DNA of 64,000 nucleotides, from contig CAZMIO010000001.1 of NCBI GenBank assembly GCA_964566535.1, forward strand, positions 183,751 through 247,750, in the 5' to 3' direction. The notes under the pieces were generated by a model that was not told the DNA's origin, did no database searches, and saw nothing but the letters and a program-made list of their open reading frames with translations. Positions 11,206 through 62,956 of the stretch are shown here, one piece after another. The translations under genes were made by a program, and so were the position numbers. Origin of the DNA: an uncultured Methanosarcinales archaeon (GTDB lineage: Archaea > Nanobdellota > Nanobdellia > Woesearchaeales > CAZOXR01). Numbering within the stretch: position 1 is the stretch's first letter; every line of letters begins with the position of its first letter.

Positions 11206-12042
11206 CTATTTTTTCTCTAATCTTTTCTTTTTCTCAGAAGTAATTAGGTAGTTATCATTAGAAATAACACTTTTGCCTAATCTTTGTTCAATGTCTTTTC
11301 TAGTAGAACCTGCAACTTCTCCGCCATCTCTTGCATCTTCTTTTAGTTTTGGAAAAACTTGGGAATCTCTTTCTTTTGTGAACCTTGTTGTAGTTGCTTC
11401 GCCCAGCATTGTTAATACTAATTCTATATCATCCATATGATCCCTTAAATTTTGGTTTTCTAGGCATTTATAATCTTTATACTCTTTTGGTGTTAAGTCA
11501 AATGTTGCCTTTGTTATCTCTGCTGTAAGGATTGAGTATTCTTTATTGGTCTTTACTCCTCTTTTATCCCATTCGTCTGTTAATTCGTCCCTTATTGCTA
11601 TTCCCCTAATCCTCTTTTCAATCCAATTATCAGAATAACCTTTGGATTTATAGAGCTCTTTCATTCGTTTTTGAGCTAATTCTGGGTCTTCTATTTCCTG
11701 AACTCTTTCGTATCCTACTTTTGCTAACCATCTTTTGAATGGTTCTGCTTTTTTTGAGGGGATGGATTGGATTATTCGAAACATGGATTTAGTGTGGGCA
11801 CAATCTGTTAAGTATCTCTTTCCATCTGCTGAGAGTAATTTCAGTTGTCGACAAAATGTCGATAACTCGGTTTCACTAGATTCGAACTCTCTTTTTTTCA
11901 AACGATACCAATAGTCTTTTGCATCGACACTATCTGTTAATGCTTCCACAATGTCAACCACTGAGAAATACCATTGTTCATTGTAATATATTCTCCTAAT
12001 GTTCTTTCCCTGGAATACAACTAATGCCTTGTTTTGGTCCAT
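11206..12042 (-). CDS. Bro-N domain protein (phage/mobile-element-associated family), paralog 1
   Basis: N-terminal MDQNKALVVFQGKNIRRIYYNEQWYFSVVDIVEALT has the Bro-N pattern; 278 aa; paralog of 39588..40424. Confidence 0.55.
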   Translation of the reverse strand: MDQNKALVVFQGKNIRRIYYNEQWYFSVVDIVEALTDSVDAKDYWYRLKKREFESSETELSTFCRQLKLLSADGKRYLTDCAHTKSMFRIIQSIPSKKAEPFKRWLAKVGYERVQEIEDPELAQKRMKELYKSKGYSDNWIEKRIRGIAIRDELTDEWDKRGVKTNKEYSILTAEITKATFDLTPKEYKDYKCLENQNLRDHMDDIELVLTMLGEATTTRFTKERDSQVFPKLKEDARDGGEVAGSTRKDIEQRLGKSVISNDNYLITSEKKKRLEKK

Positions 12043-13892: not shown

Positions 13893-14819
13893 ATGGTAAA
13901 AAAACAATTAACTAAAATATTTTTGTCTGGGAAGGACGTTTTTTCAGACATATTAGGGCAGGAAAAGGTAAAGCATGGCTTAAAGTCAGCTTTGTTGATG
14001 AACAGACACGTTATAATTGTTGGTCCTCCAGGGATTGGCAAGACAACATTAGCTAAGAATTTGGCTGGATTACTTCCGGGCAAGAATTTTGTTAGGATAC
14101 AAGGAAGTCCGGACTTAACTGTTGAGGACCTTCTTGGAGATATTGATCCAATTAAAGCTATGAAGTTTGGGCCTTTGAGTTTGGAGGCTTTTACTAAGGG
14201 TAAGATCTTTAAGGCTGACAAAGGGATATTATTCTTTGATGAGCTTAATAGATGTCCTGAGAAATTGCAGAATGCTTTATTGCAGGTTTTGGAAGAAGGT
14301 AAGGCTACAATTGGAAGCTATGATGTTGATTTTGATATTGATTTTATTTTCTTAGCTACGATGAATCCTGAAGATAGTTCTACTGAGAAATTATCTAATG
14401 TTTTGTTAGATAGATTTGATGTAATTTACATGGACTATCCTGAAAGCGTTGAGATTGAAGAGAAGATTGTTAACGAAAAGTCAGAGAAGGTTGATGTTAA
14501 ATTTCCCGAGGAATTGGTGAAGTTAAATGTTAATTTTATTAAGATATTAAGGGATGATGACAGATTGAGTAAGAAGCCATCTGTAAGAGCTTCTATTGGG
14601 CTTTATGAGAGGGCCCAGAGTAATGCTTTGCTTAAGGGTAAGAAAACAGTTGGTTTTGAGGATATACAGGAAGCAGTTATTTCGGTATTATCTCACAGAA
14701 TTGAGCTTAAGCCATCTGTTAAGTATTTGAAGAGTCCTGTTGAATTTATTGAAGAGGAATTTAAGAAAGTCTCCAGTGATTACGAAGAAATGGGCGAAAA
14801 AAGTGGTGAGGGTCCCTGA
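13893..14819 (+). CDS. AAA+ ATPase of the MoxR/ChlI (Mg-chelatase-like) family
   Basis: Walker A VGPPGIGKTT; Walker B ILFFDELNR; LLQVLEEGKATIG; LATMNPED (sensor). Confidence 0.7.
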   Translation: MVKKQLTKIFLSGKDVFSDILGQEKVKHGLKSALLMNRHVIIVGPPGIGKTTLAKNLAGLLPGKNFVRIQGSPDLTVEDLLGDIDPIKAMKFGPLSLEAFTKGKIFKADKGILFFDELNRCPEKLQNALLQVLEEGKATIGSYDVDFDIDFIFLATMNPEDSSTEKLSNVLLDRFDVIYMDYPESVEIEEKIVNEKSEKVDVKFPEELVKLNVNFIKILRDDDRLSKKPSVRASIGLYERAQSNALLKGKKTVGFEDIQEAVISVLSHRIELKPSVKYLKSPVEFIEEEFKKVSSDYEEMGEKSGEGP

Positions 14820-27113: not shown

Positions 27114-29306
27114 ATGGGAGAAAAGATGTCTGATAAGGTACAGAGGATTATGAGGATACCTGCTCAGGTTAGGAATATTTGTACAAGTGCTCATATTGAT
27201 CACGGTAAAACTACATTCACAGATAACTTAGTATCTGGTGCTGGGATGATGTCACAGGACTTAGCTGGTAAGCAGTTAGTGATGGATTTTCATGAAGATG
27301 AACAGGAAAGAGGAATTACAATTGATACTGCTTCGGTTTCTATGGTTCATGAATTTGACAATAAAGAATATTTGATTAATATGTTGGATACACCAGGGCA
27401 CGTTGATTTTGGTGGAGATGTTACAAGAGCTATGAGAGCTGTTGATGGTACTATCATATTAGTTTGTGCTTCAGAAGGAGTTATGCCGCAGACAGAAACT
27501 GTTGTTAGGCAGGCTTTGAAGGAGAATGTTAAGCCTTCTTTATTTATTAATAAAGTTGATAGGTTAATGAAAGAGTTGAAGTTAACTCCTCAACAGATGC
27601 AGGAGAGATTTGTTAAGATAATTGCTAATGTTAATAAATTAATAAGAACTATTGCTCCTAAAGAATACAAAGAGATATGGCAAGTTAGTGTACAGGACGG
27701 AACAGTTGCATTTGGTTCTGCATTCCAGAATTGGGGAATGTCTGTTCCTTACATGAAGAGGAAAGAGATTTCATTCAAAGATATTGTTGATACTTACTCT
27801 GTTGATAATGATGTTGACAGAGAAGCTGCTGTAAAGGAACTAGCTAACAAAGCACCATTGCACGAAGTTGTTTTGGACATGGTGATTAAGCATTTGCCTG
27901 ATCCACTTGAAGCTCAGAAGTACAGAATCCCTAAGATTTGGCATGGAGACCTTGAAGGAGAAGATGGGAAGTCATTGTTGAGTTGTAATCCTGATGGTCC
28001 TTTGTTTTTTGTTATTACAAAGATTACTGTTGATCCTCAAGCTGGAGAGATTTCAGGAGGAAGGTTATTTTCAGGTACTGTTAAGAAAGGAATGTCAATT
28101 TATTTAAATGGTATGAGACAGGAATCAAAAGTTCAACAGGTTTTTATCTACAATGGAGCTAAGAGAGATATTGTTGATAATGTTCCATGCGGTAATATTA
28201 TTGGTATTGCGGGAGTTAAAGCATACTCTGGGGAAACAGTTACATTAAAGCAGTCAGAACCATTCGAACAGATAAAGCATATTTTTGAACCGGTTATCAC
28301 TAAGGCAATTGAGGCTAAGAGGCCTTCTGATCTGCCAAAGTTAATTGATGTTCTTCGTCAAGTTGGAAAAGAAGATCCAACTGTTGTTGTTGAGATTAAT
28401 GAAGAGACTGGAGAACACTTATTACATGGAATGGGAGAATTGCATTTAGAAGTTATTGAGAATAGAATCAAGACTGAGAAAGGTGTTGATGTTAAAACAT
28501 CTGATCCTATTGTTGTCTATAGGGAAACAGTTACTGGTGCTTCAGCAGAAGCTGAAGGGAAATCTCCTAACAAGCATAATAAGTTTTTCTTTAAAGTTGA
28601 GCCGCTTGAGGAAGCTGTTTATGCTGCAGTTAAAGAGAACAAGATTCCTGAGATTAGGATTAAGAAAAAAGATCCTGTGATTAGGGATGCTCTTGTTGAG
28701 GCTGGAATGGAGAGTAAGAAGGCTGTTAAAGTTAAGCAGATCTATAATGGAAATATGTTTATTGATGACACAAGAGGACAAGTTTATGGACAGGAAGTTA
28801 TGGAAATGGTCCTTGATATGTTTGAAGATGTTATGAAACAAGGTCCGTTAGCTAGAGAGCCAAGTGTTAAGGTTAAAGTTATACTAACTGATATGAAATT
28901 ACACGAGGATGCAATCCATAGAGGTCCTGCACAGGTTTATCCTGCAATTAGAGAAGGTATAAGGGCTGCTATGATGGGTGCTAGGCCTTTGATCTTTGAG
29001 CCATTACAGGTATTGCACATTGAAGCTCCTGTTGAATACATGGGAGAGATCTCAAAGTTAGTTGGTAATAAGAGAGGTCAGTTAATAGATATGCAGGAAG
29101 AGAATGCTCTTGTTGTTGTTAAGGCTAAACTGCCTGTTGGAGAGATGTTTGGATGGAGTTCTGAGTTACGTTCTTCAACTGGTGGTAGGGGAAGTTCTTC
29201 TTTGGTTGATCAGATGTTTGAGAAGCTGCCTGAAGAGTTGCAGCAGAAGGTTATTTCTGGGATAAAGCAAAGGAAAGGACTTACTGATGCTCATGTTGGT
29301 GGTTAG
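27114..29306 (+). CDS. Translation elongation factor 2 (aEF-2)
   Basis: G domain NICTSAHIDHGKTT and DTPGHVDF; 730 aa; diphthamide-site His in DAIHRGPAQV. Confidence 0.9.
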   Translation: MGEKMSDKVQRIMRIPAQVRNICTSAHIDHGKTTFTDNLVSGAGMMSQDLAGKQLVMDFHEDEQERGITIDTASVSMVHEFDNKEYLINMLDTPGHVDFGGDVTRAMRAVDGTIILVCASEGVMPQTETVVRQALKENVKPSLFINKVDRLMKELKLTPQQMQERFVKIIANVNKLIRTIAPKEYKEIWQVSVQDGTVAFGSAFQNWGMSVPYMKRKEISFKDIVDTYSVDNDVDREAAVKELANKAPLHEVVLDMVIKHLPDPLEAQKYRIPKIWHGDLEGEDGKSLLSCNPDGPLFFVITKITVDPQAGEISGGRLFSGTVKKGMSIYLNGMRQESKVQQVFIYNGAKRDIVDNVPCGNIIGIAGVKAYSGETVTLKQSEPFEQIKHIFEPVITKAIEAKRPSDLPKLIDVLRQVGKEDPTVVVEINEETGEHLLHGMGELHLEVIENRIKTEKGVDVKTSDPIVVYRETVTGASAEAEGKSPNKHNKFFFKVEPLEEAVYAAVKENKIPEIRIKKKDPVIRDALVEAGMESKKAVKVKQIYNGNMFIDDTRGQVYGQEVMEMVLDMFEDVMKQGPLAREPSVKVKVILTDMKLHEDAIHRGPAQVYPAIREGIRAAMMGARPLIFEPLQVLHIEAPVEYMGEISKLVGNKRGQLIDMQEENALVVVKAKLPVGEMFGWSSELRSSTGGRGSSSLVDQMFEKLPEELQQKVISGIKQRKGLTDAHVGG

Positions 29307-35513: not shown

Positions 35514-36680
35514 TTGTTTATGGCTGGAAAACCAAGAGTTATTCCTGTAACTGCAGGAGGACATATTACTAGTTTTGAAGCTGCTATGTTAGCTTTGCAT
35601 AGGGATTTAAGTGATGATTATGATCTAGAAGCTCCGATTGGAGGAGTTAGAGGTCTTGAAGATGGAGATTTTGAACCGATTGATGTATCATTATTAAATA
35701 TAGATAGAGCTGGAGCCCCATTTGGCGCCGATAGAAATGTTGGAGATATTGAAAAAATTGCTAATAATGTTGATTCTGATGATATTATTGTTATGATGGG
35801 TGGAGATAATCACCTTAAGGTGGGGAAGGAGATGTCTGATGCTGGACTCAATGTTGTAGGGTACCCTAAAACTATGGATGGGGATACAAGTGCGTTTATA
35901 ACTTGCGGATGGGATTCTGCAGTAACTAACTATGCACAAGCTATTAGATTCCATCATACAACTGCAGCAACTTATAGTAGATTATTTTTTGTCCCTATGT
36001 TTGGAAGAGATAGAGATGGAGTAATGATTCCTGCTGCTGCTTATGGTGGAGCTGATATTGGGATTCCCTGTGAAGGTGGAAAATTAAGCTGGCAAGAACA
36101 GATTCTGCCAATGATCCAAGGGGCTTATGACAGAAATGGAGAGAGGTATGGTTATGAGGCAGTTAATAATCCCTTTGCTGTTATTGCAGTTGCCGAGGGT
36201 GCTGTTGTTGAGGAGATTCCTGAACCGCCTGAGCATTTACAAAGCAGAGATAGCCATGGAGAGATAAAGCTACAGCCTGAATGGGTTGCGATGAACCTTG
36301 TTCATCTTGCAAAACAATCTGGACTGGCAGCTGCTCAGCAAACTTATACATATAGTGGAAGGGACACGCCTCCGACTAACACAGATATCTTGCTGTCTCA
36401 GATGGCATGTTTAGAAATAGCTGATATGATTAGAGAAGGAGATTATGGGCAATGTGTAACGTTTGAGCCCCAAGGTACATTTTATAGGGCCTCAAGAGGA
36501 GATTTGGCTGAGGTTGGCCAAAAAAGAACTTTTGTGGATAGTGGGCTTTTTGATTATGAAGCATTGGTACCAAATATTGATGCATTGGAAGCCACTTATG
36601 GGAATTTATTCAGAGGTTCTCTTGGAGGGATTCCAAATAAAGATGATTTGGTATCAAGAACTATGTTAAGAGGAAGATAA
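35514..36680 (+). CDS. Divergent phosphofructokinase-like protein (PFK-A family) (GC-richer)
   Basis: VTAGGH (compare SGGDAPGMN); IVMMGGDNH (compare GGDGS); GYPKTMDGD (compare PKTIDND); VPMFGRD (compare MGR), all collinear with PFK. Confidence 0.4.
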   Translation: MFMAGKPRVIPVTAGGHITSFEAAMLALHRDLSDDYDLEAPIGGVRGLEDGDFEPIDVSLLNIDRAGAPFGADRNVGDIEKIANNVDSDDIIVMMGGDNHLKVGKEMSDAGLNVVGYPKTMDGDTSAFITCGWDSAVTNYAQAIRFHHTTAATYSRLFFVPMFGRDRDGVMIPAAAYGGADIGIPCEGGKLSWQEQILPMIQGAYDRNGERYGYEAVNNPFAVIAVAEGAVVEEIPEPPEHLQSRDSHGEIKLQPEWVAMNLVHLAKQSGLAAAQQTYTYSGRDTPPTNTDILLSQMACLEIADMIREGDYGQCVTFEPQGTFYRASRGDLAEVGQKRTFVDSGLFDYEALVPNIDALEATYGNLFRGSLGGIPNKDDLVSRTMLRGR

Positions 36681-36684
36681 TTTT

Positions 36685-37314
36685 TTATTTTATTTCTTCT
36701 AAATTTATTATTCCAACTTTATCTTCTATTATTCTAGGACAAGCAGTATTAACCCAAGCATCTATGAAAGGGAAGTTTTCTAATTGATTAATGTCTAAGG
36801 TGTCTGTTAGGAAGAGGTATACCGATTTATCTTTGAGTTTGTTCTTTAATGCTATTGCGTTGTTTAGTTGTGATTGGCCTTGTTTTGTTGTTACTAGGAT
36901 TCCTATGTTTTTTGCAGTTAGGAATTTTAGGTAAGCTCCTTTTCTTCTTTTTTTGTATGCTTCTACTTCATCTTTGCTTATTTTTGTTAGTGTTAATGAG
37001 ATGGGGTTTAGGATGAAGATTGGTTTGTTTATATCGAAAGCTAGACCTAATGGATGGAATTCTCCTGTGCCTATGAATAAGAAGCAGTCAACTTTGTTTT
37101 TGATCTTAGCTGCTTTTGAGAAATTGCATCCAATTATTTGTCCCCCTATAATGGCTGTCTTGTATTCTTTTGTTAACTGTCTTTTAATTGAAGGTAAGTT
37201 GTGTAGGAATTGGATAGTTGAGACTAAGCCTACTTTTTTTGGTAGTTTGCTTATTATTGAGCTGGTTAGTTTTACGATACCTTTGTGTTTTGCTTCTATG
37301 AATACTGTTTTCAT
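36685..37314 (-). CDS. dph2: Diphthamide synthesis protein Dph2 homolog, N-terminally truncated
   Basis: IIGCNFS; FIGTGEFHPLGLA; LENFPFIDAWVNTACPRI are collinear with archaeal Dph2 domains 2-3; the protein is about 209 aa versus about 340 aa for full-length Dph2. Confidence 0.6.
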   Translation of the reverse strand: MKTVFIEAKHKGIVKLTSSIISKLPKKVGLVSTIQFLHNLPSIKRQLTKEYKTAIIGGQIIGCNFSKAAKIKNKVDCFLFIGTGEFHPLGLAFDINKPIFILNPISLTLTKISKDEVEAYKKRRKGAYLKFLTAKNIGILVTTKQGQSQLNNAIALKNKLKDKSVYLFLTDTLDINQLENFPFIDAWVNTACPRIIEDKVGIINLEEIK

Positions 37315-37436
37315 GTTATGATAGATGTAATAAGAAGTATATAAGAATTTTGATATTTGAATAAGAACTAATCTTTTTGTTTGTTAATTCTGTTTTTAGG
37401 GAAAGTTTTTTAAAAACTATAAATAATAATCAAAAT

Positions 37437-37775
37437 ATGAGAGCAAGAAGTTACTTATTGGTTTATGCTTGTGCAATATCTGTTGTAGCTACTGTTTCCC
37501 TTGCCTCCATCTACTCCACCCTATGTGAAATTCGTGATGATGTTGCAGTAATACCAGAAATCTATGCCCACATTAATGGAATAGAGGATTCAGTAGATGA
37601 GATGGCAGGAATACCAAATGCTGTTAGTGGAATTAAGGCATCAGTAGATGAGATGGCAGGTAGGACAGATAGGATTGATGGTATGCTTGCTGATATTGTA
37701 GATCACAGAGAACAAAGAGTTGGTGAATTAGGAACAATAGTTGATGATGCGTACAAACCACCTGAAAACCAATAA
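37437..37775 (+). CDS. Small membrane-anchored protein with tandem SVDEMAG repeats
   Basis: TM LLVYACAISVVATVSLASI, then (D/A)SVDEMAG(I/R) twice; the ORF opens at TTG 37377 but ATG 37437 is the likely start. Confidence 0.35.
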   Translation: MRARSYLLVYACAISVVATVSLASIYSTLCEIRDDVAVIPEIYAHINGIEDSVDEMAGIPNAVSGIKASVDEMAGRTDRIDGMLADIVDHREQRVGELGTIVDDAYKPPENQ

Positions 37776-39587: not shown

Positions 39588-40424
39588 TTAATTTTCAATT
39601 TCTTTTTTCTTTTTTTCAGTTAAGTGAAGATAATTTTCTTTTGAAGTTATGGATTTACCTGTCTTTTGCTCAATCTCCTTTCGTGTGTTTTTAGCTATCG
39701 TTCCTCCTTCAACAGCTGAGTGTTTACATTCACTAAATCCCTTGGAATCCTTTGAGACAGTGATATCAGTAGTTGCCTTTTCTCCAACCATTGTCAGTAT
39801 CAATTCCCAATCAGTCATATGGTCTCTTAGGTTTTGATTGTTGCGCTTTAAGCTTTTGAATTTCTTATATTCTTCAGTAGTCTTGTCAAATGTAGCTCTT
39901 GAAATCTCATTTGTGAGTATTGTGAATTCTTTTTGATTTTCTATATCTCTATTTTTCCATTCTTCAGTCAATTCCTGCCTTACTGCAATGCCCCTTAGCC
40001 TTTTATCAATCCAGTCTTTAGGGTAGCCTTTTAATTCATAGTATTCTTTTACTCTGTTTTGAGCTAACTCTGGGTTTTCTATCTCTTGGATTCTGTCATA
40101 ACCTACTTTTGCCAACCACCTTTTGAATGGTTCTGCTTTTGAAGACGGAATTGACTGAATTATACGAAATATGCCTTCTGTATTGGCACAATTCATGCTT
40201 TGAGATCCTCCAGAAGTAGGAATCGAAAGGGTATGTACAAATTGTACCCACCCTTTAGAAAGCTCTTCATCTCTTGTTCTCATTTTGCTAATATACTGCT
40301 TTGGGTCTTTGGAATCAGTAAGCACAAATACAATATCTTCTATTACAAACCACCACTCATCCTTAAACCAAGTTCTTCTAATATCTTTTCCTTGAAATAC
40401 AACTAATGCTTTGTTTTGGTCCAT
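39588..40424 (-). CDS. Bro-N domain protein, paralog 2
   Basis: MDQNKALVVFQGKDIRRTWFKDEWWFVIEDIVFVLT...RIIQSIPSSKAEPFKRWLAKVGYDRIQEIENPELAQ; the conserved stretches are near-identical to those of 11206..12042. Confidence 0.55.
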   Translation of the reverse strand: MDQNKALVVFQGKDIRRTWFKDEWWFVIEDIVFVLTDSKDPKQYISKMRTRDEELSKGWVQFVHTLSIPTSGGSQSMNCANTEGIFRIIQSIPSSKAEPFKRWLAKVGYDRIQEIENPELAQNRVKEYYELKGYPKDWIDKRLRGIAVRQELTEEWKNRDIENQKEFTILTNEISRATFDKTTEEYKKFKSLKRNNQNLRDHMTDWELILTMVGEKATTDITVSKDSKGFSECKHSAVEGGTIAKNTRKEIEQKTGKSITSKENYLHLTEKKKKEIEN

Positions 40425-40577: not shown

Positions 40578-43214
40578 ATGGAGGGATTTACTATGACAAA
40601 GAAATACGTATACTCGTTTAAAGAAGGAAAGAAAGAGATGAAGGAAGAGTTGGGTGGTAAGGGTGCTAACCTTGCTGAGATGACTTCAATAGGTATTCCT
40701 GTACCTCCTGGATTTACAATTTCAACTGATGCGTGTGCTGAATATTATGAGAATGATAAGAAATATCCCGATAATCTACAAAAACAGGTAGATGATAAGT
40801 TAGAAGAGTTAGAAAAGGAGATGGATGCTAAGTTAGGGGATAATGAGAACCCACTTTTAGTTTCAGTTAGGTCAGGGGCTGCTGTATCAATGCCCGGTAT
40901 GATGGATACTGTACTTAATTTAGGTCTTAATGATAGTTCTGTTCAAGGTTTAATCAAGAAAACAGGCAATGAGCGGTTTGCTTGGGATTCATACAGAAGA
41001 TTCATCAACATGTTTGGAAATGTTGTTATGGATGTTCCTCACAAACACTTTGAAGAAGTTATAGAGAAAGCAAAAGCTACAAAAGGTGTTGAAGTTGATA
41101 CTGAGCTAGATGCTGAGGATTTGAAAAATGTTTGTGAAGGCTATAAAGAAGTTGTTCAGAAGCATGCTGGGGAAATGTTTCCTGAAGATCCTAGAGAACA
41201 GCTTAAAATGTCAATTGATGCTGTCTTTAATTCATGGAATTGCAAGAGGGCTATAATTTACAGAAAGATCAATAATATTACTGGGTTAAATGGAACTGCT
41301 GTTAATGTTCAGACAATGGTTTTTGGTAATATGGGAGAAACATCTGGAACTGGAGTTTGCTTTACGAGGGATCCTTCAACTGGAGAGAATAAGTTTTATG
41401 GTGAATTCTTAATGAATGCTCAGGGAGAGGATGTTGTAGCTGGAATTAGAACGCCTCAACCAATTATTGAACTTAAGGAGATTATGGATGAGAATTATGA
41501 AGAATTAGTGAAGATTAGAGAGAAGTTGGAGAAGCACTACAAGGATATGCAGGATATTGAGTTTACAATTCAAGATAAGAAGCTGTACATCTTACAGACA
41601 AGGAGTGGAAAGAGAACTGCTCAAGCAGCTATTAAGATGGCTATTGATATGGTTGAAGAGAAGTTAATAGACAAGGAAACTGCTTTACTTAGAATTGATC
41701 CAGAGCAGTTAAATCATTTACTTCACAAACAATTAGATCCTATCGGCAAAGAGAAAGCTGAGGTTATTGCAAAAGGACTTCCTGCTTCACCTGGAGCTGC
41801 TGTTGGAGTTGCTGCTTTTACAGCTGAGGATGCTGCTAGGTTTGCTGAAGAGGGTGAAAAGGTAATATTAGTAAGGAATGAAACTTCACCTGAAGATATT
41901 GAAGGTATGGATGCTTCTCAAGGTATTTTAACTGCTAAGGGTGGGATGACAAGTCATGCGGCTGTTGTAGCAAGAGGTATGGGAAAGTGCTGTGTAGCAG
42001 GATGTGCTGATATTATTGTTAATGAAAAGACTAAAGAATTTAGTGTTGATGGTACTATAGTTAAGGAAAAGGACTGGATAACACTTGATGGTTCAGCTGG
42101 AGAAGTTATGTTAGGACAAGTTCCAGTTACAGATCCAGAACTAAGTGGAGATTTTGGTGTACTAATGGAATGGGCTGATGAAGTCAGGAAATTAGGTATT
42201 AGAACAAATGCTGACACTCCTAAGGATTCTAAAGTTGCTCTGAAGTTTGGAGCTGAAGGAATTGGACTTTGTAGAACAGAACATATGTTCTTTGAAGGTG
42301 AAAGGATTAAAGCAGTTAGGGAAATGATCTTGTCTGATGATTTGGAAGGAAGGAAGAAGGCACTTGCTAAATTATTGCCATTCCAGAAAGCTGACTTTAA
42401 GGGATTGTTTGAGGTTATGGAAGGCAAACCAGTTAAGATTAGAACTTTGGATCCACCATTACATGAATTTTTGCCTAAGGAAGAGGCTGATATTAAAGAG
42501 ATTGCTGAAGAATTAGGTGTATCACTTGAAAAGTTGAAAGAGAAGATTGAAGGTTTACATGAATTTAATCCTATGTTAGGTCATAGAGGATGTAGATTAG
42601 GAATAACTTACCCAGAGATTACTGAGATGCAGGCTAGAGCGATAATTGAGGCGGCTTGTGAAGTAGTTTTGGAGAAGAAAATCAAGGTCTATCCTGAAAT
42701 AATGATTCCTTTGGTTGGAAATGTTAAAGAATTAGAGAATCAGAAGAAATTAGTTGTTAAGGTTGCTAAGGAAGTGATGAAAGAGAAGGGAGTTGAAATA
42801 GATTATGAAGTTGGAACTATGATTGAGATTCCTAGGGCTGCATTAACGGCTGATGAGATTGCTCTCGAAGCTGACTTCTTTTCATTTGGGACTAATGATC
42901 TTACGCAGATGGCATGTGGATTTTCAAGGGATGATTCAGGAACGTTCTTAGGCGAATATGTTGATATGGGAATCTATCCAAGAGATCCTTTCCAAGCTAT
43001 TGATCAGACTGGAGTTGGAGAATTGATGAAGATTTGTGTTGAGAAGGCTAGGAAAGTAAAGCCTAAGATGCATATTGGAATCTGTGGAGAACATGGTGGA
43101 GAGCCTTCTTCAGTAGAGTTTTGCCACAGAATCGGTCTTGATTATGTAAGCTGTAGTCCCTTTAGGGTTCCTATTGCTAGGTTAGCTGCTGCTCAGGCAG
43201 CTTTGCGTAAATAA
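40578..43214 (+). CDS. ppdK: Pyruvate, phosphate dikinase
   Basis: [20 protein letters not shown]; phospho-His domain [16 protein letters not shown]; 878 aa; the start may be Met-6 (40593). Confidence 0.85.
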
Positions 43215-55411: not shown

Positions 55412-57229
55412 ATGGCATTCGATAATATAAGTGGATTGTGGTCGCTATTGGCATTAGTTCCATTTATAATAATATATCTCAGAAGGCCAAAGGTGCAGAA
55501 TAAGATTGTTCCCTCATTAATGTTTCTCGTAAAACAACAGAAGGTTGCAAAACAACATTCTTTCTTTAGGACGTTGACAAGAAATCTACTTTTCTTTCTG
55601 CAGTTATTTGCTATCCTCCTTATGGCATTTGCAATTGCGTTGCCCTACATTATTTTGTCCCATAGTATAACTGCTGAGAACACGGTCATTGTTCTGGATG
55701 TTAGTGCATCTATGCAAACCAAATATGGCGGAGGGACTAGATTTCAAAAAGCAGTTAATGAGGCTAGGCAATATCTAAGTGGGAGAGTAAGCTTATTGTT
55801 AGCTGAGAATACTCCTTTAATTGTCCTTGAGGATGGAGACAGCGAAACTGCTGCCGACCTACTAGGGAAGGTTAAGGCGAAAGCAACATCTACAAATTTA
55901 GGTGATGCAATGCTTCTCGGGAAGGAAATACTTGGTAATCGACCTGGAAGGGTTGTAGTAATAAGCGATTTTAGCTATAGTGATGGTATTGATGTTCACG
56001 TTGCAAAAAGAATATTATCATCTAATGAAATTGAAGTAGTTTTTGTTGATGTTTCAGGTAATGTAAAAAATGTAGGGATCATAGACATGGATGTTGATAA
56101 ATATACCACTAAAGTTTATGTCAAGAACTATAATGATAAAGAAGAGACGATTACGGTTAAGCTGGAGGGGGAGAAGGTTGGGAGGTCAGACCCAATTGAG
56201 ATATTACCTAAGTCTGTTGAGAGTTTTGAATTTAGAACTTCCCCTGGAGTGAGTGAGATTAGCATCGATGTAAAAGATGATTTTGAGCTTGACAATAAAC
56301 TCTATGTTAGTGCCCCTCTTAAAGATAAGGTAAAGGTTCTCTTAGTTACAGATGATGGAGGTAATAAATTAATTCCTGCACTTTTGGCTTCTGGAGATAT
56401 AGAAATTGAGACTAAATATTTTTCACCTGAAAGGTCATTGCTTCCAAATTATGACGTGATAATATTGAGTAAATTTCAATATGTTCCTGGAACTTTTGAA
56501 GATTTGTCCGACTATGCAAAAAAAGGAGGCAAAGTAATAATATCTGCGCAAGACGATATCGATCAGATGAGGATGGCTGACCTAGCGATGATTAAATCAC
56601 AAGGAGTCCAACAAAATAATGTTCAGGTTTGCGTTGATGTGTTTAATCAATTCACAAGATATTTTCAGAAGGACAGATGTTTTGCTGCAGTATCTAAATA
56701 TGTAAGCGGGACTGCTGAAGATAATACTCTTGTAATAGCGTCGACATCAGAAGGAAGTCCTTTGATTTCCCTTAAAGATATAGGCAAGGGTAGTGCACTT
56801 TACTATGGTATTTATGATGACAGCAGTGATTTCTGGCAGCTGCCTTCTTACCCAATCTTTTGGGATTCACTGATTAATTTTTTAATTGAGGCAGAAGACA
56901 TATCTTCTTTTAATTTCAAGGCTGGCAAAATAATCCAGGTTGAGAAGCAGAAGATTAAGACCCCCTCTACAACTACGGAAGCTTCAAGTCTTATTTTAGA
57001 TGAAGCTGGAATCTATCAATTCGATGGTAAAAGTGTAGCTGTAAATGTAGTTGATGAAAAGGAATCTGATGTTGGAAAGAATGAAAAATTCCAAAACGAT
57101 AAAAAGAATTTTAAGGTAACTAGTGAGAGTAGAAATAAACATCTCAATCTTGATGTGATATTAATTACAATTGGGTTGATCTTATTGATAATTGAACTTT
57201 ATGTTGTTAAAAGAAGGGGGGACCTATAA
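55412..57229 (+). CDS. BatA-like vWA protein with an N-terminal double-TM 'aerotolerance' domain
   Basis: LWSLLALVPFIIIYLRRP; MIDAS VIVLDVSASM. Confidence 0.65.
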   Translation: MAFDNISGLWSLLALVPFIIIYLRRPKVQNKIVPSLMFLVKQQKVAKQHSFFRTLTRNLLFFLQLFAILLMAFAIALPYIILSHSITAENTVIVLDVSASMQTKYGGGTRFQKAVNEARQYLSGRVSLLLAENTPLIVLEDGDSETAADLLGKVKAKATSTNLGDAMLLGKEILGNRPGRVVVISDFSYSDGIDVHVAKRILSSNEIEVVFVDVSGNVKNVGIIDMDVDKYTTKVYVKNYNDKEETITVKLEGEKVGRSDPIEILPKSVESFEFRTSPGVSEISIDVKDDFELDNKLYVSAPLKDKVKVLLVTDDGGNKLIPALLASGDIEIETKYFSPERSLLPNYDVIILSKFQYVPGTFEDLSDYAKKGGKVIISAQDDIDQMRMADLAMIKSQGVQQNNVQVCVDVFNQFTRYFQKDRCFAAVSKYVSGTAEDNTLVIASTSEGSPLISLKDIGKGSALYYGIYDDSSDFWQLPSYPIFWDSLINFLIEAEDISSFNFKAGKIIQVEKQKIKTPSTTTEASSLILDEAGIYQFDGKSVAVNVVDEKESDVGKNEKFQNDKKNFKVTSESRNKHLNLDVILITIGLILLIIELYVVKRRGDL

Positions 57230-57231
57230 CG

Positions 57232-59718
57232 ATGATGTTACTGCCATATTGTATTGGTCAAATCTGCTTTAAGTATAGTTACTTACTATGGTTAATCCCA
57301 TTACTGTTATTCATCATTCCTTTGATAATAAAGAAGAATCTTGTAAAGTTTAGGAGCGACCAAGAAGAAAAAGAATACAAGAAAGAGAAATACAATTTGA
57401 GAAAGATAATGATGATTACAAGGATTGTTATTTTTTCTGCGTTATTAATTGCTCTTGCGTCTCCATATATTTTAGAAGAGAAGATTGTTCCAGGAGACAT
57501 TTCACTGACAATACTAGTTGATAATTCATCTTCATTTGGTTTGTTTGATACTAGTCTAGTTGATGGAGTGTATAAGGAACTGAAGGATAGGATTCCTGTT
57601 GAAATGAGATCCATTGGAAGGGGAGATGTTTCTGCAATAGGTGATGGAATCCTGCAGAACATTCAAGGAGATGATAATGTATTGGTTGTCTCTGATGGAT
57701 ACAGTAATAAAGGTAAGTTGTTGGGAGATATGATCAGTTTTGCTAATGGTTTGAATTCTACAATCAATACGATAAGATTAAAGCCTGTTGAGAGTGATGT
57801 AGGAGTTGTGATTGAGGGGCCGTCTCAAACTATACTTGATGTTGAGGAGCTTTTTAATGTTGTTGTAAATAATGTTGGCGAAGAAATTTCATACCACATT
57901 ACAATACTTGTTGATGGTGAGGCAGTAAGAGATGAGGATGGAAGTGGAGCAAGTACTTATCCTGTATTGAAAAGTTTCTCTGATGGATATCATAGAATTG
58001 AAGTTAGGTTAACTAATGTTGGTGAAGGGGATTCCTTTTCAAGCAATAATAAATATTACAAAGCAGTTAAAGTTATCCAAAGGCCGCTAATCTTTCTTGC
58101 ATCTCAGAAAAGTTCTCCGTTGGAAGCATCCTTAAGGGAAATATATAACGTTGATGTTGGGACTGAGCTTCCTAGTAACTTAGGAAAATATTCTTCTGTG
58201 ATTATTAATGATATCCCTGCACAGGACATTGCTCCAAAAATTGATTTGTTGAATAATTATGTTTCTGATGGAAATGGACTTTTTGTTATTGGGGGGGAGA
58301 GGTCTTTTGACAGAGATGATAGCTTAAAAAGTTTAGATGGAGGAGTTCAGCTTTATCAATCACTGCTTCCTGTGAAGGTTGGAGCTGGTGAAGAGGGTGA
58401 GAAGAGTGATGTGAATATTATGGTTGTTATAGATGCTTCTTCAGGAACGGCTAGCCATATTGGCCTTGAGAAGGCATTGGCGATAAGCGTTATCGAAAGT
58501 TTGCATCCTGACAATAATGTAGGAGTGATTACATTCTATAGTGATGGGGCGAGCAGAAAAATTGGATTAGTAACTCCAATACTTCCCCTTAAGCAGCATA
58601 TCAATGAAACAAAAGATAAGATATCCAGACTATCATTTGGAGGGCAGTCGTATTTTGATTATGGGATCTTAAGTGCGCATGAATTATTGAAAAGTGTTTC
58701 TGGGAGTAAGAATATTATATTTATCAGCGACGGGTCTACAACTTATAGTAAGCTAAAAGAAGATACAAGACAAGCTGCACTTGATGTTGCGAATAGAGGT
58801 ACTAAAATTTATGTGGTGGGTGTTGGTTCTTCAATTGATGAGACTAAGGTTATTATTGGCGGCAGTTCTAAGAGGGATGATGAACTTTTATCCCAGATTG
58901 CATTATTTGGAAATGGTGCTTACTTCCCAACTGATGCTTCAAACAGACTGAATATATTATTTGGAAAACAAGATAAGAGTCAGAAGGAGACTGATTTTTT
59001 CAACAGCTTGTCGATATTAGAGAGTACCCATTTCATAACTTACAATTTAAGTTTGGGTGCAGTTGTTAGTGGGTACAATTTAGTAATACCTAAACCTGCT
59101 TCCCGGCTGTTAGTTACAACTAATAAAAATATTCCAATGGTTACTGTATGGAGATTTGGGATTGGGAGGGTTGCTACTTTGGCAACTGATGATGGTACAA
59201 AATGGGGCGGCGAGTTGTTGACAAAAAAGAATTCTAAATTGATAACGAAGATAGTAAATTGGGTTATAGGGGATATGAGTAGGAACAAGGAGTTTGATGT
59301 GAGTATTAGAGATACTGGTTTAGGGAGGGATACAGATATTAATGTAGTCTCGAATGAATTACCTAAGGCTAAGGGACTTACATTCTACAAGAGAGATGTC
59401 AATTTGTATTCAACGTCATATACTCCAAAAGAAACTGGATTTCATACTGTTTTAGGAGCTGAGTTTGCAGTAAACTATAATGATGAGTATGAAAATCTTG
59501 GTCTGAATCCAGAATTTTTAAAACTTGTTGAGAGTAGTGGCGGGGAAGTCTTTGAACCAGAAAATACTGATGATATTCTTTCGACAATAAAAAGAGTTTC
59601 AAAAAGAATAAAAGTACATTCAACTAACTATGCTTATGTTGTGATTATAGTTGCACTCATAACTTTTATTTATGAGATATTTTACAGGAGGATTAATGAA
59701 AAGAGTAAGGAATTATAG
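57232..59718 (+). CDS. Large membrane vWA protein (BatB-like), TM at both ends
   Basis: N-terminal TM helices; vWA-like ILVDNSSSFG and VVIDASSGTAS; C-terminal TM. Confidence 0.55.
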   Translation: MMLLPYCIGQICFKYSYLLWLIPLLLFIIPLIIKKNLVKFRSDQEEKEYKKEKYNLRKIMMITRIVIFSALLIALASPYILEEKIVPGDISLTILVDNSSSFGLFDTSLVDGVYKELKDRIPVEMRSIGRGDVSAIGDGILQNIQGDDNVLVVSDGYSNKGKLLGDMISFANGLNSTINTIRLKPVESDVGVVIEGPSQTILDVEELFNVVVNNVGEEISYHITILVDGEAVRDEDGSGASTYPVLKSFSDGYHRIEVRLTNVGEGDSFSSNNKYYKAVKVIQRPLIFLASQKSSPLEASLREIYNVDVGTELPSNLGKYSSVIINDIPAQDIAPKIDLLNNYVSDGNGLFVIGGERSFDRDDSLKSLDGGVQLYQSLLPVKVGAGEEGEKSDVNIMVVIDASSGTASHIGLEKALAISVIESLHPDNNVGVITFYSDGASRKIGLVTPILPLKQHINETKDKISRLSFGGQSYFDYGILSAHELLKSVSGSKNIIFISDGSTTYSKLKEDTRQAALDVANRGTKIYVVGVGSSIDETKVIIGGSSKRDDELLSQIALFGNGAYFPTDASNRLNILFGKQDKSQKETDFFNSLSILESTHFITYNLSLGAVVSGYNLVIPKPASRLLVTTNKNIPMVTVWRFGIGRVATLATDDGTKWGGELLTKKNSKLITKIVNWVIGDMSRNKEFDVSIRDTGLGRDTDINVVSNELPKAKGLTFYKRDVNLYSTSYTPKETGFHTVLGAEFAVNYNDEYENLGLNPEFLKLVESSGGEVFEPENTDDILSTIKRVSKRIKVHSTNYAYVVIIVALITFIYEIFYRRINEKSKEL

Positions 59719-59737
59719 TTTGTATTGAGGTGAGATT

Positions 59738-60214
59738 ATGGCTGTCATGAAAAGAGATGTTAACTTTGGGATGTTTGTTTTGATAATTGCGACTCTGCTT
59801 GTTTTTGCAGGTTTTACTGCTTATTATCAGACAACTTTTGAAAATCTAACTAGTGAGTATAGGGGTAAATTGGGTGAACTTAGTGATGTTACATCTAATT
59901 TACAGCAAGAGAAAATAAAACTGAACCAAACAAGTATCCAACTTCAGATAAAGGCTGAGAAAGAGAAGAGTTTAAATGAGAAATATGAAGAGATGGTGGC
60001 TTGGAAGGATAGAGAAGAAAAATCTAAGATAGAATTCCAAGGATTGTACACTGAAAGTCAGGGTTTTTTGGCGACTGCTGAACATGACAGAGATGCTTAT
60101 AAGGCTGAAAGGGATACATTTGAGGAGGAGAGAGATACGGAAAGATCATTAAAGGTTCAATACAAAGGTAAATGGGATAATTGCGAAGAGGAGTTAGATA
60201 CATACACTGGATAA
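59738..60214 (+). CDS. Membrane-anchored coiled-coil protein
   Basis: N-terminal TM then coiled-coil. Confidence 0.4.
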   Translation: MAVMKRDVNFGMFVLIIATLLVFAGFTAYYQTTFENLTSEYRGKLGELSDVTSNLQQEKIKLNQTSIQLQIKAEKEKSLNEKYEEMVAWKDREEKSKIEFQGLYTESQGFLATAEHDRDAYKAERDTFEEERDTERSLKVQYKGKWDNCEEELDTYTG

Positions 60215-60222
60215 GATAACCA

Positions 60223-61008
60223 TTGGAAAAAAGAAAGATGAAACAATTTAAGAAAGTACTAAATGAGATGAACTTTACATTAGATGGCATTCTAATTTTT
60301 GAAGAGTTGTTGAATGCTTTGTTAATCTTCTTAGTATTTTATCTATTGTTGACATTTTTCAATTTCTATCCTTTGGCTGCCCTTGGACCGTCAATTGCTT
60401 ATTTTGTTTTCTTCATTTATGTGAAGATGCAGAAAAAAGATAAAGCTAGATTGGTTGAATCACATTATGATTTATTAAAAGAAAAATTAAGGACAGCTAG
60501 AGATAATGCTGCAGTTGAGAATCCTATCGTTGATGAGCTTGAGAAAGAAGTGATAGGAGATATGAAACAAGTTAGAGTTTCTTCCTTTATTAACACAAAG
60601 GAAGTTTCTTGGAAGATTACAATAAGTATAGTCCTATGTTTCCTGATTGTCCTTATTGCTGTCTTGAATGTTGATATTGCTAGCTTATCTTCATCAATGA
60701 TGATGGAAAAATTAATGAATAGGACATTGTTAAAAGGCAAAGGTGATGTTTCAGTTGAACTGAATATAAGTGAGGATATTTATGGGGATGACTCTGTTGC
60801 ACAGCTGGGAGATAATGAACTTAGCATTAAGATCAGACCTTCGAATTATAAAGTTAGTGTGAGGGAGGGAGGGGATATTGAACGAAGGCAGTTTGATGAA
60901 ACGTTTCCCTCTGAAGTTTTTGTTGAGTCTTCTGTTGTTTATGAGGAGAACATCCCTAAAGAACAGCAGGAGCTTGTGAAGGCTTATTATGAGAAGTTGA
61001 AGGGATAA
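60223..61008 (+). CDS. Hypothetical membrane protein (3 TM)
   Basis: ORF between the vWA genes and moxR. Confidence 0.4.
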   Translation: MEKRKMKQFKKVLNEMNFTLDGILIFEELLNALLIFLVFYLLLTFFNFYPLAALGPSIAYFVFFIYVKMQKKDKARLVESHYDLLKEKLRTARDNAAVENPIVDELEKEVIGDMKQVRVSSFINTKEVSWKITISIVLCFLIVLIAVLNVDIASLSSSMMMEKLMNRTLLKGKGDVSVELNISEDIYGDDSVAQLGDNELSIKIRPSNYKVSVREGGDIERRQFDETFPSEVFVESSVVYEENIPKEQQELVKAYYEKLKG

Positions 61009-61098
61009 TAATTAGGATAAATAAAAATAAATAATAAAAAGATAGAAATAAAGGATGAATGGTGAAAATGATAAAACTAAAAAAACAAAATATGGGGT

Positions 61099-62043
61099 GT
61101 GATGAGAATGAAAAATTACAAAGAACTATTTGATGGGTTATTGAAAGAGATTGAAAGAGTCATAGTTGGGCAGAGGGAAATGCTTGAACATGTTATCATT
61201 GCTTTATTGTGTGATAGCAATGCATTGCTTGAAGGAAATCCTGGGCTGGCAAAGACCCTAGCTATCAAAACTTTGTCAGAGTTGATGGAATTGAAGTTTA
61301 ACAGGATTCAGAGTACTCCTGATCTAATGCCATCAGATATAACTGGGACATACATCATTACAGAGGAGAAGGGAAAGAGAGATTTCAAGTTTCAGCCAGG
61401 GCCAGTATTTGCAAATATTGTTTTAGCTGATGAGATTAATAGAGCGACTCCTAAAACACAATCTGCAATGTTAGAAGCGATGCAGGAGAAACAAGTTACG
61501 GTTGGGAATAATACATTTAAACTGGATCCGCCTTTTTTTGTTCTGGCAACACAGAATCCGATAGAGCAAGAAGGAACCTATCCGTTACCTGAGGCACAGG
61601 CTGACAGGTTCTTGTTGAAGGTAAAATTAGATTACCCTACACTGGATGAAGAGTTAAAGATTGTTGATGAATACTCTGGAGAGATTAAAAATAGAAGACT
61701 GAAGAATGCATTGACTAAGAATCAGCTTCTAACACTGCAGGGCCTTACAAGGCAAGTGCCTGTTGCAAATGACATCAAAAAAAGAGTTGTTAAAATGATT
61801 GCAGCTACAAGGACTAACAAACAATTAATCCAGTATGGGGCTTCACCAAGAGCATCAATTGGGCTTATATTGGCTGCTAAGGCGAGAGCATTGATGAAGG
61901 GAAGAAATCATGTAAGTAATGAGGATATTGATGCTATGGCTTTCCCAGTTCTTCGGCATAGGATTATATTAAACTTTGAAGCTGAGAGGAAGGGACTTAC
62001 AACTGATGATGCTATAAAAGAGCTAGTTACAAAACTAAAATGA
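61099..62043 (+). CDS. moxR: MoxR-family AAA+ ATPase
   Basis: VIVGQREMLEHVIIALL..NALLEGNPGLAKT; LADEINRATPKTQSAMLEAMQE; LATQNPIEQEGTYPLPEAQADRF. Confidence 0.85.
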   Translation: MMRMKNYKELFDGLLKEIERVIVGQREMLEHVIIALLCDSNALLEGNPGLAKTLAIKTLSELMELKFNRIQSTPDLMPSDITGTYIITEEKGKRDFKFQPGPVFANIVLADEINRATPKTQSAMLEAMQEKQVTVGNNTFKLDPPFFVLATQNPIEQEGTYPLPEAQADRFLLKVKLDYPTLDEELKIVDEYSGEIKNRRLKNALTKNQLLTLQGLTRQVPVANDIKKRVVKMIAATRTNKQLIQYGASPRASIGLILAAKARALMKGRNHVSNEDIDAMAFPVLRHRIILNFEAERKGLTTDDAIKELVTKLK

Positions 62044-62107
62044 TGATGTTGTGGTGATGATGGCAATGATTGTGGTGATGATGGAGATTAGAAGGTGAGA
62101 AAATCAA

Positions 62108-62956
62108 ATGATTGATACAAGTTATCTAAGTCAGCTGGCGAAGTTTAGTTTGGTCTTGAATAAAAGAGTTACCTCTAAATATTCAGGACCTAGAAAGTCG
62201 ATTGCACTTGGAAGAGGCATCATATTCAAGGATCATAGAGTCTATGCTCCAGGAGATGACTTTAGAGCAATTGATTGGAAGGTTTTTGCAAGAACAGATG
62301 ACTTAATGATTAAGACCTTTGAAGAAGAGAGGAGTTTAGTTGTGCATGTCATAATCGACAGCAGTGCAAGTATGAATTTTGGGAAACAAATTACTAAGTT
62401 TGACTATGCCTCTATGCTTGGTGTTGGTTTTGCGTATCTTGCTATGAAAGGTAATGAAAAGTTTATGTTTTCAACTTTTGCTGAAAGTCTTGAGGTATTT
62501 AGACCTAATCGGGGGATGTCTCAGCTTGCGTCAATGGTACACCATCTGAATAAATTAAAGACGGAGGGGACATCTAAAGTTTTAGAGGCCATAACTCAGT
62601 ACAGGAAGGTTATTGGAAGTAGAGCAATGATATTTTTGATATCCGATTTTCTTATCGATCCTAGTGAGGTTATTAAGGCAGTCCAATTGTTTGGAAGGAA
62701 TCAAGTTAAGGTTATCCAAGTTCTTGACCCTGTTGAGAAAGATCTTAAGTTTAGTGGAGACTTTAAGTTGGAAGACAGCGAAACGAAAGAGAAACTAAGG
62801 ACTTATATAAGTCAGAGATCCAGGATGGGTTACCAAAAAATGTTAGATGAACATATTTCTAAGATTGATGATGCGTGTACTAGTCTTGGAATAAATTTTT
62901 ATACAATTACAACTGACACCTCAATATTTGATGCGTTTTACAAAATATTGGGTTGA
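62108..62956 (+). CDS. DUF58 protein (MoxR-associated, vWA-like)
   Basis: DFRAIDWKVFARTDDLMIKTFEEE...VIIDSSASM. Confidence 0.7.
   Translation: MIDTSYLSQLAKFSLVLNKRVTSKYSGPRKSIALGRGIIFKDHRVYAPGDDFRAIDWKVFARTDDLMIKTFEEERSLVVHVIIDSSASMNFGKQITKFDYASMLGVGFAYLAMKGNEKFMFSTFAESLEVFRPNRGMSQLASMVHHLNKLKTEGTSKVLEAITQYRKVIGSRAMIFLISDFLIDPSEVIKAVQLFGRNQVKVIQVLDPVEKDLKFSGDFKLEDSETKEKLRTYISQRSRMGYQKMLDEHISKIDDACTSLGINFYTITTDTSIFDAFYKILG

Follow-up and report, generated by a model that had tools for sequence, protein, structure and literature searches.

The open reading frame at 36685..37314 on the minus strand of the window, by which is meant the whole 64-kb stretch of archaeal DNA analysed here, encodes a protein of 209 amino acids corresponding to Dph2 domains 2 and 3. 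In all likelihood this protein is the C-terminal-half (CTD) subunit of a 2-(3-amino-3-carboxypropyl)histidine synthase, Dph2, that is encoded as two genes in Candidatus Woesearchaeota and the DPANN archaea, its partner being expected at an unlinked site. The appropriate label is C-terminal subunit of a split Dph2, not truncated or defective Dph2, and beyond the right annotation the gene carries little further meaning. Split Dph2 is already known, and the window gene is an ordinary member for the DPANN lineage; the initial annotation had framed it as an oddity, a framing that is not supported, since the split is the normal and previously reported DPANN state.

The identity of the protein is established by several comparisons. 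It had been noted from the letters of the DNA that the ORF runs collinear with domains 2 and 3 of archaeal Dph2 for about 209 amino acids and contains the motifs IIGCNFS, FIGTGEFHPLGLA and FPFIDAWVNTACPRI, and this description is confirmed by the ORF itself and by Pfam, TIGR and PDB alignments. The protein, with the N-terminus MKTVFIEAKHKG, matches PF01866 (Diphthamide_syn) with an E-value of 1.7e-41 and 143.1 bits (cut-off 33.2), the match covering only profile positions 64-270 of 302, and reaches 132.1 bits against TIGR00322 (Dph1/Dph2 domain; cut-off 35). Its score of 148.1 bits against TIGR03682 (Dph2; positions 72-278 of 308) lies under the equivalog cut-off of 202.8 because only about two thirds of that model is covered. 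Among solved structures, the aligned parts are residues 92-293 of 327 in 6bxm (Ca. Methanoperedens Dph2), 94-298 of 337 in 6q2d (Methanobrevibacter smithii Dph2) and 145-332 of 378 in 3lzc, a tagged Pyrococcus horikoshii construct. Since profile and PDB coverage starts past domain 1 and is far beyond chance, domain 1 is absent from the window protein, which thus holds not three alpha/beta domains in one chain but the part after domain 1 alone. At its other end the protein extends 17 residues past the cysteine of the CPR motif and stops about 30 residues short of canonical Dph2. An AlphaFold2 model of the CTD monomer, built with the family alignment, has a two-lobed alpha/beta architecture (pLDDT 87.8, pTM 0.77), and when this model was compared with the PDB by Foldseek the best 15 matches were all archaeal Dph2 (E 6e-15 to 1e-10, rmsd 2.7-3.3 Å). 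The corresponding fold scores, with a TMq of 0.7-0.8 and a TMt of about 0.5 against solved Dph2, are those that a predicted structure comprising two thirds of a Dph2 enzyme should give.

The shortfall against the TIGR03682 cut-off could be taken to indicate a neofunctionalised, Dph2-like non-canonical radical SAM enzyme with a substrate other than EF-2, all the more so as Dph2-like enzymes acting on other substrates have been reported, an entry on arsinothricin biosynthesis being present in the reference list of PMC11048331. Such a change of function is nevertheless highly improbable: the low equivalog score follows from the partial model coverage, the nearest structures are without exception bona fide Dph2 enzymes that modify EF-2, no other, full-length dph2 occurs in the same-species contigs examined, and published surveys treat the halves as the only Dph1/2 that these genomes have (PMC6143161).

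The boundaries of the gene are well defined. The initial annotation gave a gap of 62 bp to the next gene, and this figure is correct for the distance between the dph2 CTD gene and the divergent ORF at 37377. Within this gap a TATA-like box, TTATATA (37338..37344, minus strand), was read from the sequence 24-30 nt 5' of the ATG. A distance of 24-30 nt is the usual spacing of archaeal TATA boxes for leaderless or short-leader transcripts, and because TTATATA fits this promoter geometry it suggests that the dph2 CTD gene has its own promoter and may be expressed as a leaderless or short-leader mRNA starting at this ATG. At the 3' side, a gene for a PFK-family phosphofructokinase (35514..36680, plus strand) is convergent with the dph2 CTD gene, the two stop codons being 4 bp apart, with no space for an intrinsic terminator between them.

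An upstream in-frame extension hidden by a frameshift had been named as the finding that would overturn the reading of a genuinely short gene, and, more broadly, a frameshift or a chimeric join in sequencing or assembly could have shortened a full-length dph2. No support was found for an artefact of this kind, and its probability is next to nil. Several in-frame stops precede the ATG, the closest at 17 codons, and no frame of the window contains NTD-like sequence, NTD denoting the N-terminal domain of Dph2. The same protein, identical and with the same neighbours, is found on 17 public contigs (NCBI GCA_030750365.1, JGI, ENA), and this agreement between independent assemblies refutes the artefact. 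In NCBI the identical protein is MDP7179666.1 from a Candidatus Woesearchaeota archaeon, the source assemblies being GCA_030750365.1 and sister metagenome-assembled genomes (MAGs). The short length is, in addition, a property of the whole family.

Other features of the window were recorded in passing. Two 278-aa paralogues with near-identical N-termini (MDQNKALVVFQGK...) are encoded at 11206..12042 and 39588..40424, both on the minus strand, and the product of the latter is annotated as Bro-N (PF02498) on the corresponding public contig; domains of this kind typically occur in viruses and mobile elements. Further along, a Bat/MoxR-like operon of this DPANN archaeon (55412..62956, plus strand) encodes a BatA/VWA-like protein (605 aa), a VWA protein (828 aa), a 158-aa ORF, DUF7502, a MoxR-type AAA ATPase and DUF58; another MoxR-like AAA gene is located at 13893..14819.

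With respect to the family, 1123 homologues were retrieved by a protein search. The top 120 are nearly all 204-225 aa long and 46-99% identical to the window protein, and hundreds of homologues at 40-70% identity have the same length and the same start. A scan of one genome per species yielded 571 confirmed relatives; among the best 80 of these loci most are labelled as Woesearchaeota, Nanoarchaeota or Nanoarchaeia MAGs, the remainder carrying other labels. The family is therefore one of independent genes for proteins of about 205-225 aa that begin at the point where homology to the NTD stops, distributed lineage-wide in DPANN hosts. An alignment of 53 CTD members (A1) contains 24 invariant columns, including GC (C63), GxGxFHP and NTxCPR (C192), and the window protein keeps every one of these 24 residues. 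The 209-aa form is neither an artefact nor a one-off. Some CTD loci carry unexpected taxonomic labels: a homologue (L036) lies on a 306-kb contig, NJBN01000005.1, labelled as candidate division LCP-89 bacterium, and dozens of loci occur in MAGs labelled Methanosarcinales, many of them titled 'uncultured Methanosarcinales archaeon'. Mis-binning or mislabelling of DPANN contigs is the probable explanation, as opposed to true occurrence in these taxa.

The initial annotation had also considered that diphthamide synthesis is being lost, in which case the gene would be a decaying remnant in this organism. Some archaea do lack dph genes (PMC6143161), and neither dph5 nor dph6 was present among the window ORFs scanned, a set that leaves out some small or unannotated ORFs; the latter absence, however, says little either way, since no more than about 74 kb of this genome could be inspected. 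Decay is given only a very small probability here, and the proposed loss is contradicted by the existence of more than 1000 homologues, by the 24 invariant positions, by the confident fold and by the retention of the EF-2 histidine motif. The ORF is intact and is identical on the 17 contigs, which come from several samples, and none of the family-invariant residues has been eroded; the pLDDT of 87.8 and the hundreds of homologues with unchanged length and start likewise argue against a remnant. As to the substrate of the pathway, aEF-2 had been reported at 27114..29306 (plus strand) with its target histidine, which is borne out by the Pfam domains GTP_EFTU, EFG_III, EFG_IV and EFG_C and by a motif search that placed the diphthamide motif HEDAIHRGP at residues 597-605.

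The distribution of the cluster cysteines is central to how such a protein could function. In P. horikoshii Dph2 the [4Fe-4S] cluster has one ligand per domain, namely Cys59, Cys163 and Cys287, with Cys-59 within a Cys-Asp motif (PMC11048331). In the window protein, Cys63 of the GCNFS motif (codon 37126..37128, minus strand) aligns with the GCNF motif of solved Dph2 and Cys192 of the NTACPR motif (codon 36739..36741, minus strand) aligns with TACPR of 6bxm and 6q2d, both residues being invariant in 53 of 53 family members. Judged by these alignments, Cys63 would be the domain-2 ligand and the counterpart of P. horikoshii Cys163, and Cys192 would be the domain-3 ligand and the counterpart of Cys287. 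The first of the three cysteines is missing from the chain. That the domain-1 cysteine is absent had been pointed out before, and in the alignment of the family only two cysteines are invariant. It had further been proposed that another ligand completes the cluster, a proposal that finds no conserved candidate within the protein: its third cysteine, C77, is A, C or S across relatives, and because C77 is not conserved there is no substitute ligand within the window protein.

A probable source for the missing domain is a second protein family. When an HMM of three PDB domain-1 sequences was run over the 80 related loci, one clear match was obtained, an ORF of 99 aa at L081:5483-5782, which lies 4.2 kb upstream of the CTD gene on the same contig. 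Used as a query, this stand-alone NTD retrieved 130 proteins of 67-115 aa, all with PF01866, and a profile of stand-alone NTDs gave 6224 matches at E <= 0.001, the best 120 of which are all 82-126 aa long. In the alignment of this family (A2) the motifs PDGxK, FGxCD and GH are invariant, and the FGxCD stretch aligns with the domain-1 FGACD or YGACD of solved Dph2, including the YGACD (Cys59-Asp60) of the P. horikoshii enzyme. The NTDs match positions 1-57 of 302 in PF01866 and the CTDs positions 64-270 or further, so that the two families are complementary pieces of one domain model. The labels of the NTD family are Woesearchaeota, Nanoarchaeota and DPANN, as for the CTD. A lineage-wide NTD partner family, with members typically of about 85-100 aa, thus supplies domain 1 together with the third ligand cysteine.

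The genomic surroundings of the stand-alone NTD genes (L093-L095, L229-L231 and L088-L090) show recurrent synteny: the order ribosomal protein S3Ae, NTD and then a DHH phosphoesterase, which either adjoins the NTD or follows after three small ORFs, was seen in two organisms, and in other organisms a DUF357 (PF04010) gene lies beside the NTD or one gene away. Neither of these neighbourhoods, S3Ae/DHH or DUF357, is present in the window. The pyruvate phosphate dikinase encoded next to one NTD (L088:1-1605, on WJKY01000028.1) carries an intein (Intein_splicing and LAGLIDADG), and for the pyruvate phosphate dikinase of the window (40578..43214) the public version of the contig is annotated with no such domains.

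Both halves can be found within the same organism. They occur on a single contig in L081, and in the MAG WJKY01 (GCA_014728835.1) the NTD lies on WJKY01000028.1 and the CTD on WJKY01000053.1 (L050); this co-occurrence per genome has been verified in a few cases only. A wider view of the arrangement was obtained by scanning metagenome contigs with a degenerate DNA motif for WxGxxFGxCDxP, which returned at least 120 loci. Among the 120 listed, 103 hold an NTD, always in a frame that measures no more than 142 aa from stop to stop and never fused to the CTD. A CTD on the same strand and downstream of the NTD accompanies 17 of these 103 listed loci, and in 11 of the 17 pairs the cistrons adjoin or overlap each other and their stop and start signals are coupled, as in TGGTAAAATGG; further examples of the junction are TGG-TAA-A-ATG-G and TAATG. 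In two of the 11 abutting pairs the halves are separated by one in-frame TAA. These pairs, L114:8744-9781 and L189:1-891, have NTD and CTD in the same frame with a single TAA between them (...GW-TAA-ATG... in L114), and read-through of the stop could possibly still give a fused protein; in other pairs the two reading frames overlap without being in phase (TAATG, ATGGTAG). The pair junctions constitute a snapshot series of gene fission.

The CTD cistrons of these metagenome pairs begin with M..LF.EA..G, like the MKTVFIEAKHKG of the window protein. A comparison of the C-terminal extent of the window gene (36685..37314) with L114:9029-9781 and L050:1412-2086 showed that CTDs of the abutting-pair type, as in L114:9029-9781, have about 250 aa and reach about position 292 of 302 in the Pfam profile, and that the window type stops at about 270 of 302. 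From this comparison, the Woesearchaeota form of the CTD has lost a C-terminal segment of canonical Dph2 as well.

In the related genome loci, an NTD is found within 10 kb of the CTD in one of 80 and is lacking over that distance in the other 79, so that linkage is unusable for finding the partner; the halves are usually dispersed in the genome loci of Woesearchaeota. The search for the NTD of the organism itself covered the window by several routes. A tblastn search with domain 1 of M. smithii Dph2 gave chance matches only (E >= 0.9), a six-frame motif search for G[AST]C[CD] or [FY]G[AS]C returned nothing relevant, and neither the HMM of the three PDB domain-1 sequences nor an HMM of 120 stand-alone NTDs matched the window. 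Extended to four other contigs of the same species and to 10 kb past the right edge of the window, the NTD profile likewise found no NTD. None of 19 NTD clusters screened by accession falls in the MDP717xxxx series of this assembly, and none of 80 listed contigs with metagenome NTD motif loci belongs to the JGI samples in which this organism occurs. Several candidates were considered and set aside: the ORFs of 102 aa (L005) and 79 aa (L006) that flank the CTD genes of relatives and, in the window, the divergent ORF adjoining the CTD gene (37377..37775) are not Dph2-like, and the NTD clusters P0259 and P0301, which have a matching source signature, turned out to belong to other organisms.

The suggestion in the initial annotation that a split-gene partner exists elsewhere is the one favoured by the evidence: the NTD family, its co-occurrence with the CTD in relatives and the literature speak for it, but the partner was not found in the roughly 74 kb available from this genome. 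One could conclude that no NTD partner is encoded in this genome and that the two-domain protein functions by itself or as a homo-oligomer, its cluster being held by two cysteines plus either a non-cysteine ligand or one contributed by a second copy. The null result in the window and in about 10 kb more of the same species, and the unlinked position of the halves in most relatives, would be in keeping with this conclusion, which is however unlikely: the CTD family has no third conserved cysteine, C77 being variable, the NTD family is very large and ubiquitous, bears the same lineage labels and has an invariant ligand cysteine, and the halves co-occur wherever both can be examined, the coverage of this genome being only about 74 kb. 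Somewhat more speculatively, and very unlikely on present evidence, the species may have lost the NTD or never had it, and a C-terminally trimmed, two-domain minimal Dph2 with a two-cysteine cluster or one at a homodimer interface may still modify EF-2. In a weaker variant of this idea, the split would make cluster assembly depend on the association of two polypeptides, and the inter-subunit [4Fe-4S] site could regulate diphthamide synthesis.

Under the favoured interpretation of a two-gene Dph2, the NTD partner should be present in this genome as a Dph2 domain-1 protein of about 85-100 aa, with the cysteine of FGxCD, encoded at an unlinked site. The NTD and CTD polypeptides would associate non-covalently to form a three-domain Dph2 protomer, in which one NTD cysteine together with Cys63 and Cys192 would hold a [4Fe-4S] cluster bridging the two chains. 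The resulting assembly, probably a dimer of NTD-CTD pairs resembling the canonical Dph2 homodimer, would then cleave SAM, and the 3-amino-3-carboxypropyl group would be moved from SAM to the conserved histidine of aEF-2, the first step of diphthamide formation. Physical assembly, inter-subunit cluster and activity are all presumed in this scheme. A [4Fe-4S] cluster shared between two polypeptides would be a natural test case for the modularity of the non-canonical radical SAM fold.

Splitting of this enzyme has been described on several occasions. A split DPH2 (Nst 222-440) was reported for the nanoarchaeon Nst1 by Podar et al. 2013 (PMC3655853), with unlinked halves, as is usual for the halves in Woesearchaeota. 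Narrowe et al. 2018 (PMC6143161) described Dph1/2 as divided into an NTD gene and a CTD gene in several DPANN genomes; these authors concatenated the halves for phylogeny and warned against their use as completeness markers, and it is their point that, when MAG completeness is assessed, Dph2 halves must count neither as absent nor as duplicate markers. Split Dph1/2 has also been listed for Parvarchaeota, Pacearchaeota, Woesearchaeota and Altiarchaeota by Dombrowski et al. 2019 (PMC6349945). The split Dph1/2 of DPANN is the same phenomenon as that represented by the window gene, a separate small gene family providing the N-terminal domain, and nothing essential differs between the two. Relative to the available portions of these reports, three details are added here: the break falls at about position 57/64 of the Pfam profile, before the second domain; only two invariant cysteines belong to the CTD and one to the NTD; and some pairs abut and are translationally coupled, others being dispersed.

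In comparison with the canonical Dph2 homodimer (P. horikoshii 3LZD, Ca. Methanoperedens 6BXM, M. smithii 6Q2D), the window protein shows 30-33% identity and the same fold over the aligned part, with the GC and CPR cysteine motifs and GxGxFHP in common. Canonical Dph2 consists of a single three-domain chain of about 330-340 aa that provides three cysteine ligands, whereas the window protein is devoid of domain 1 (about 90 aa, including the first cysteine) and of the last 30 residues or so. The eukaryotic Dph1-Dph2 heterodimer is likewise a Dph2-family enzyme made from two different polypeptides; however, eukaryotic Dph1 and Dph2 are full-length, three-domain paralogues, whereas in DPANN a single protomer has been fissioned without any duplication.
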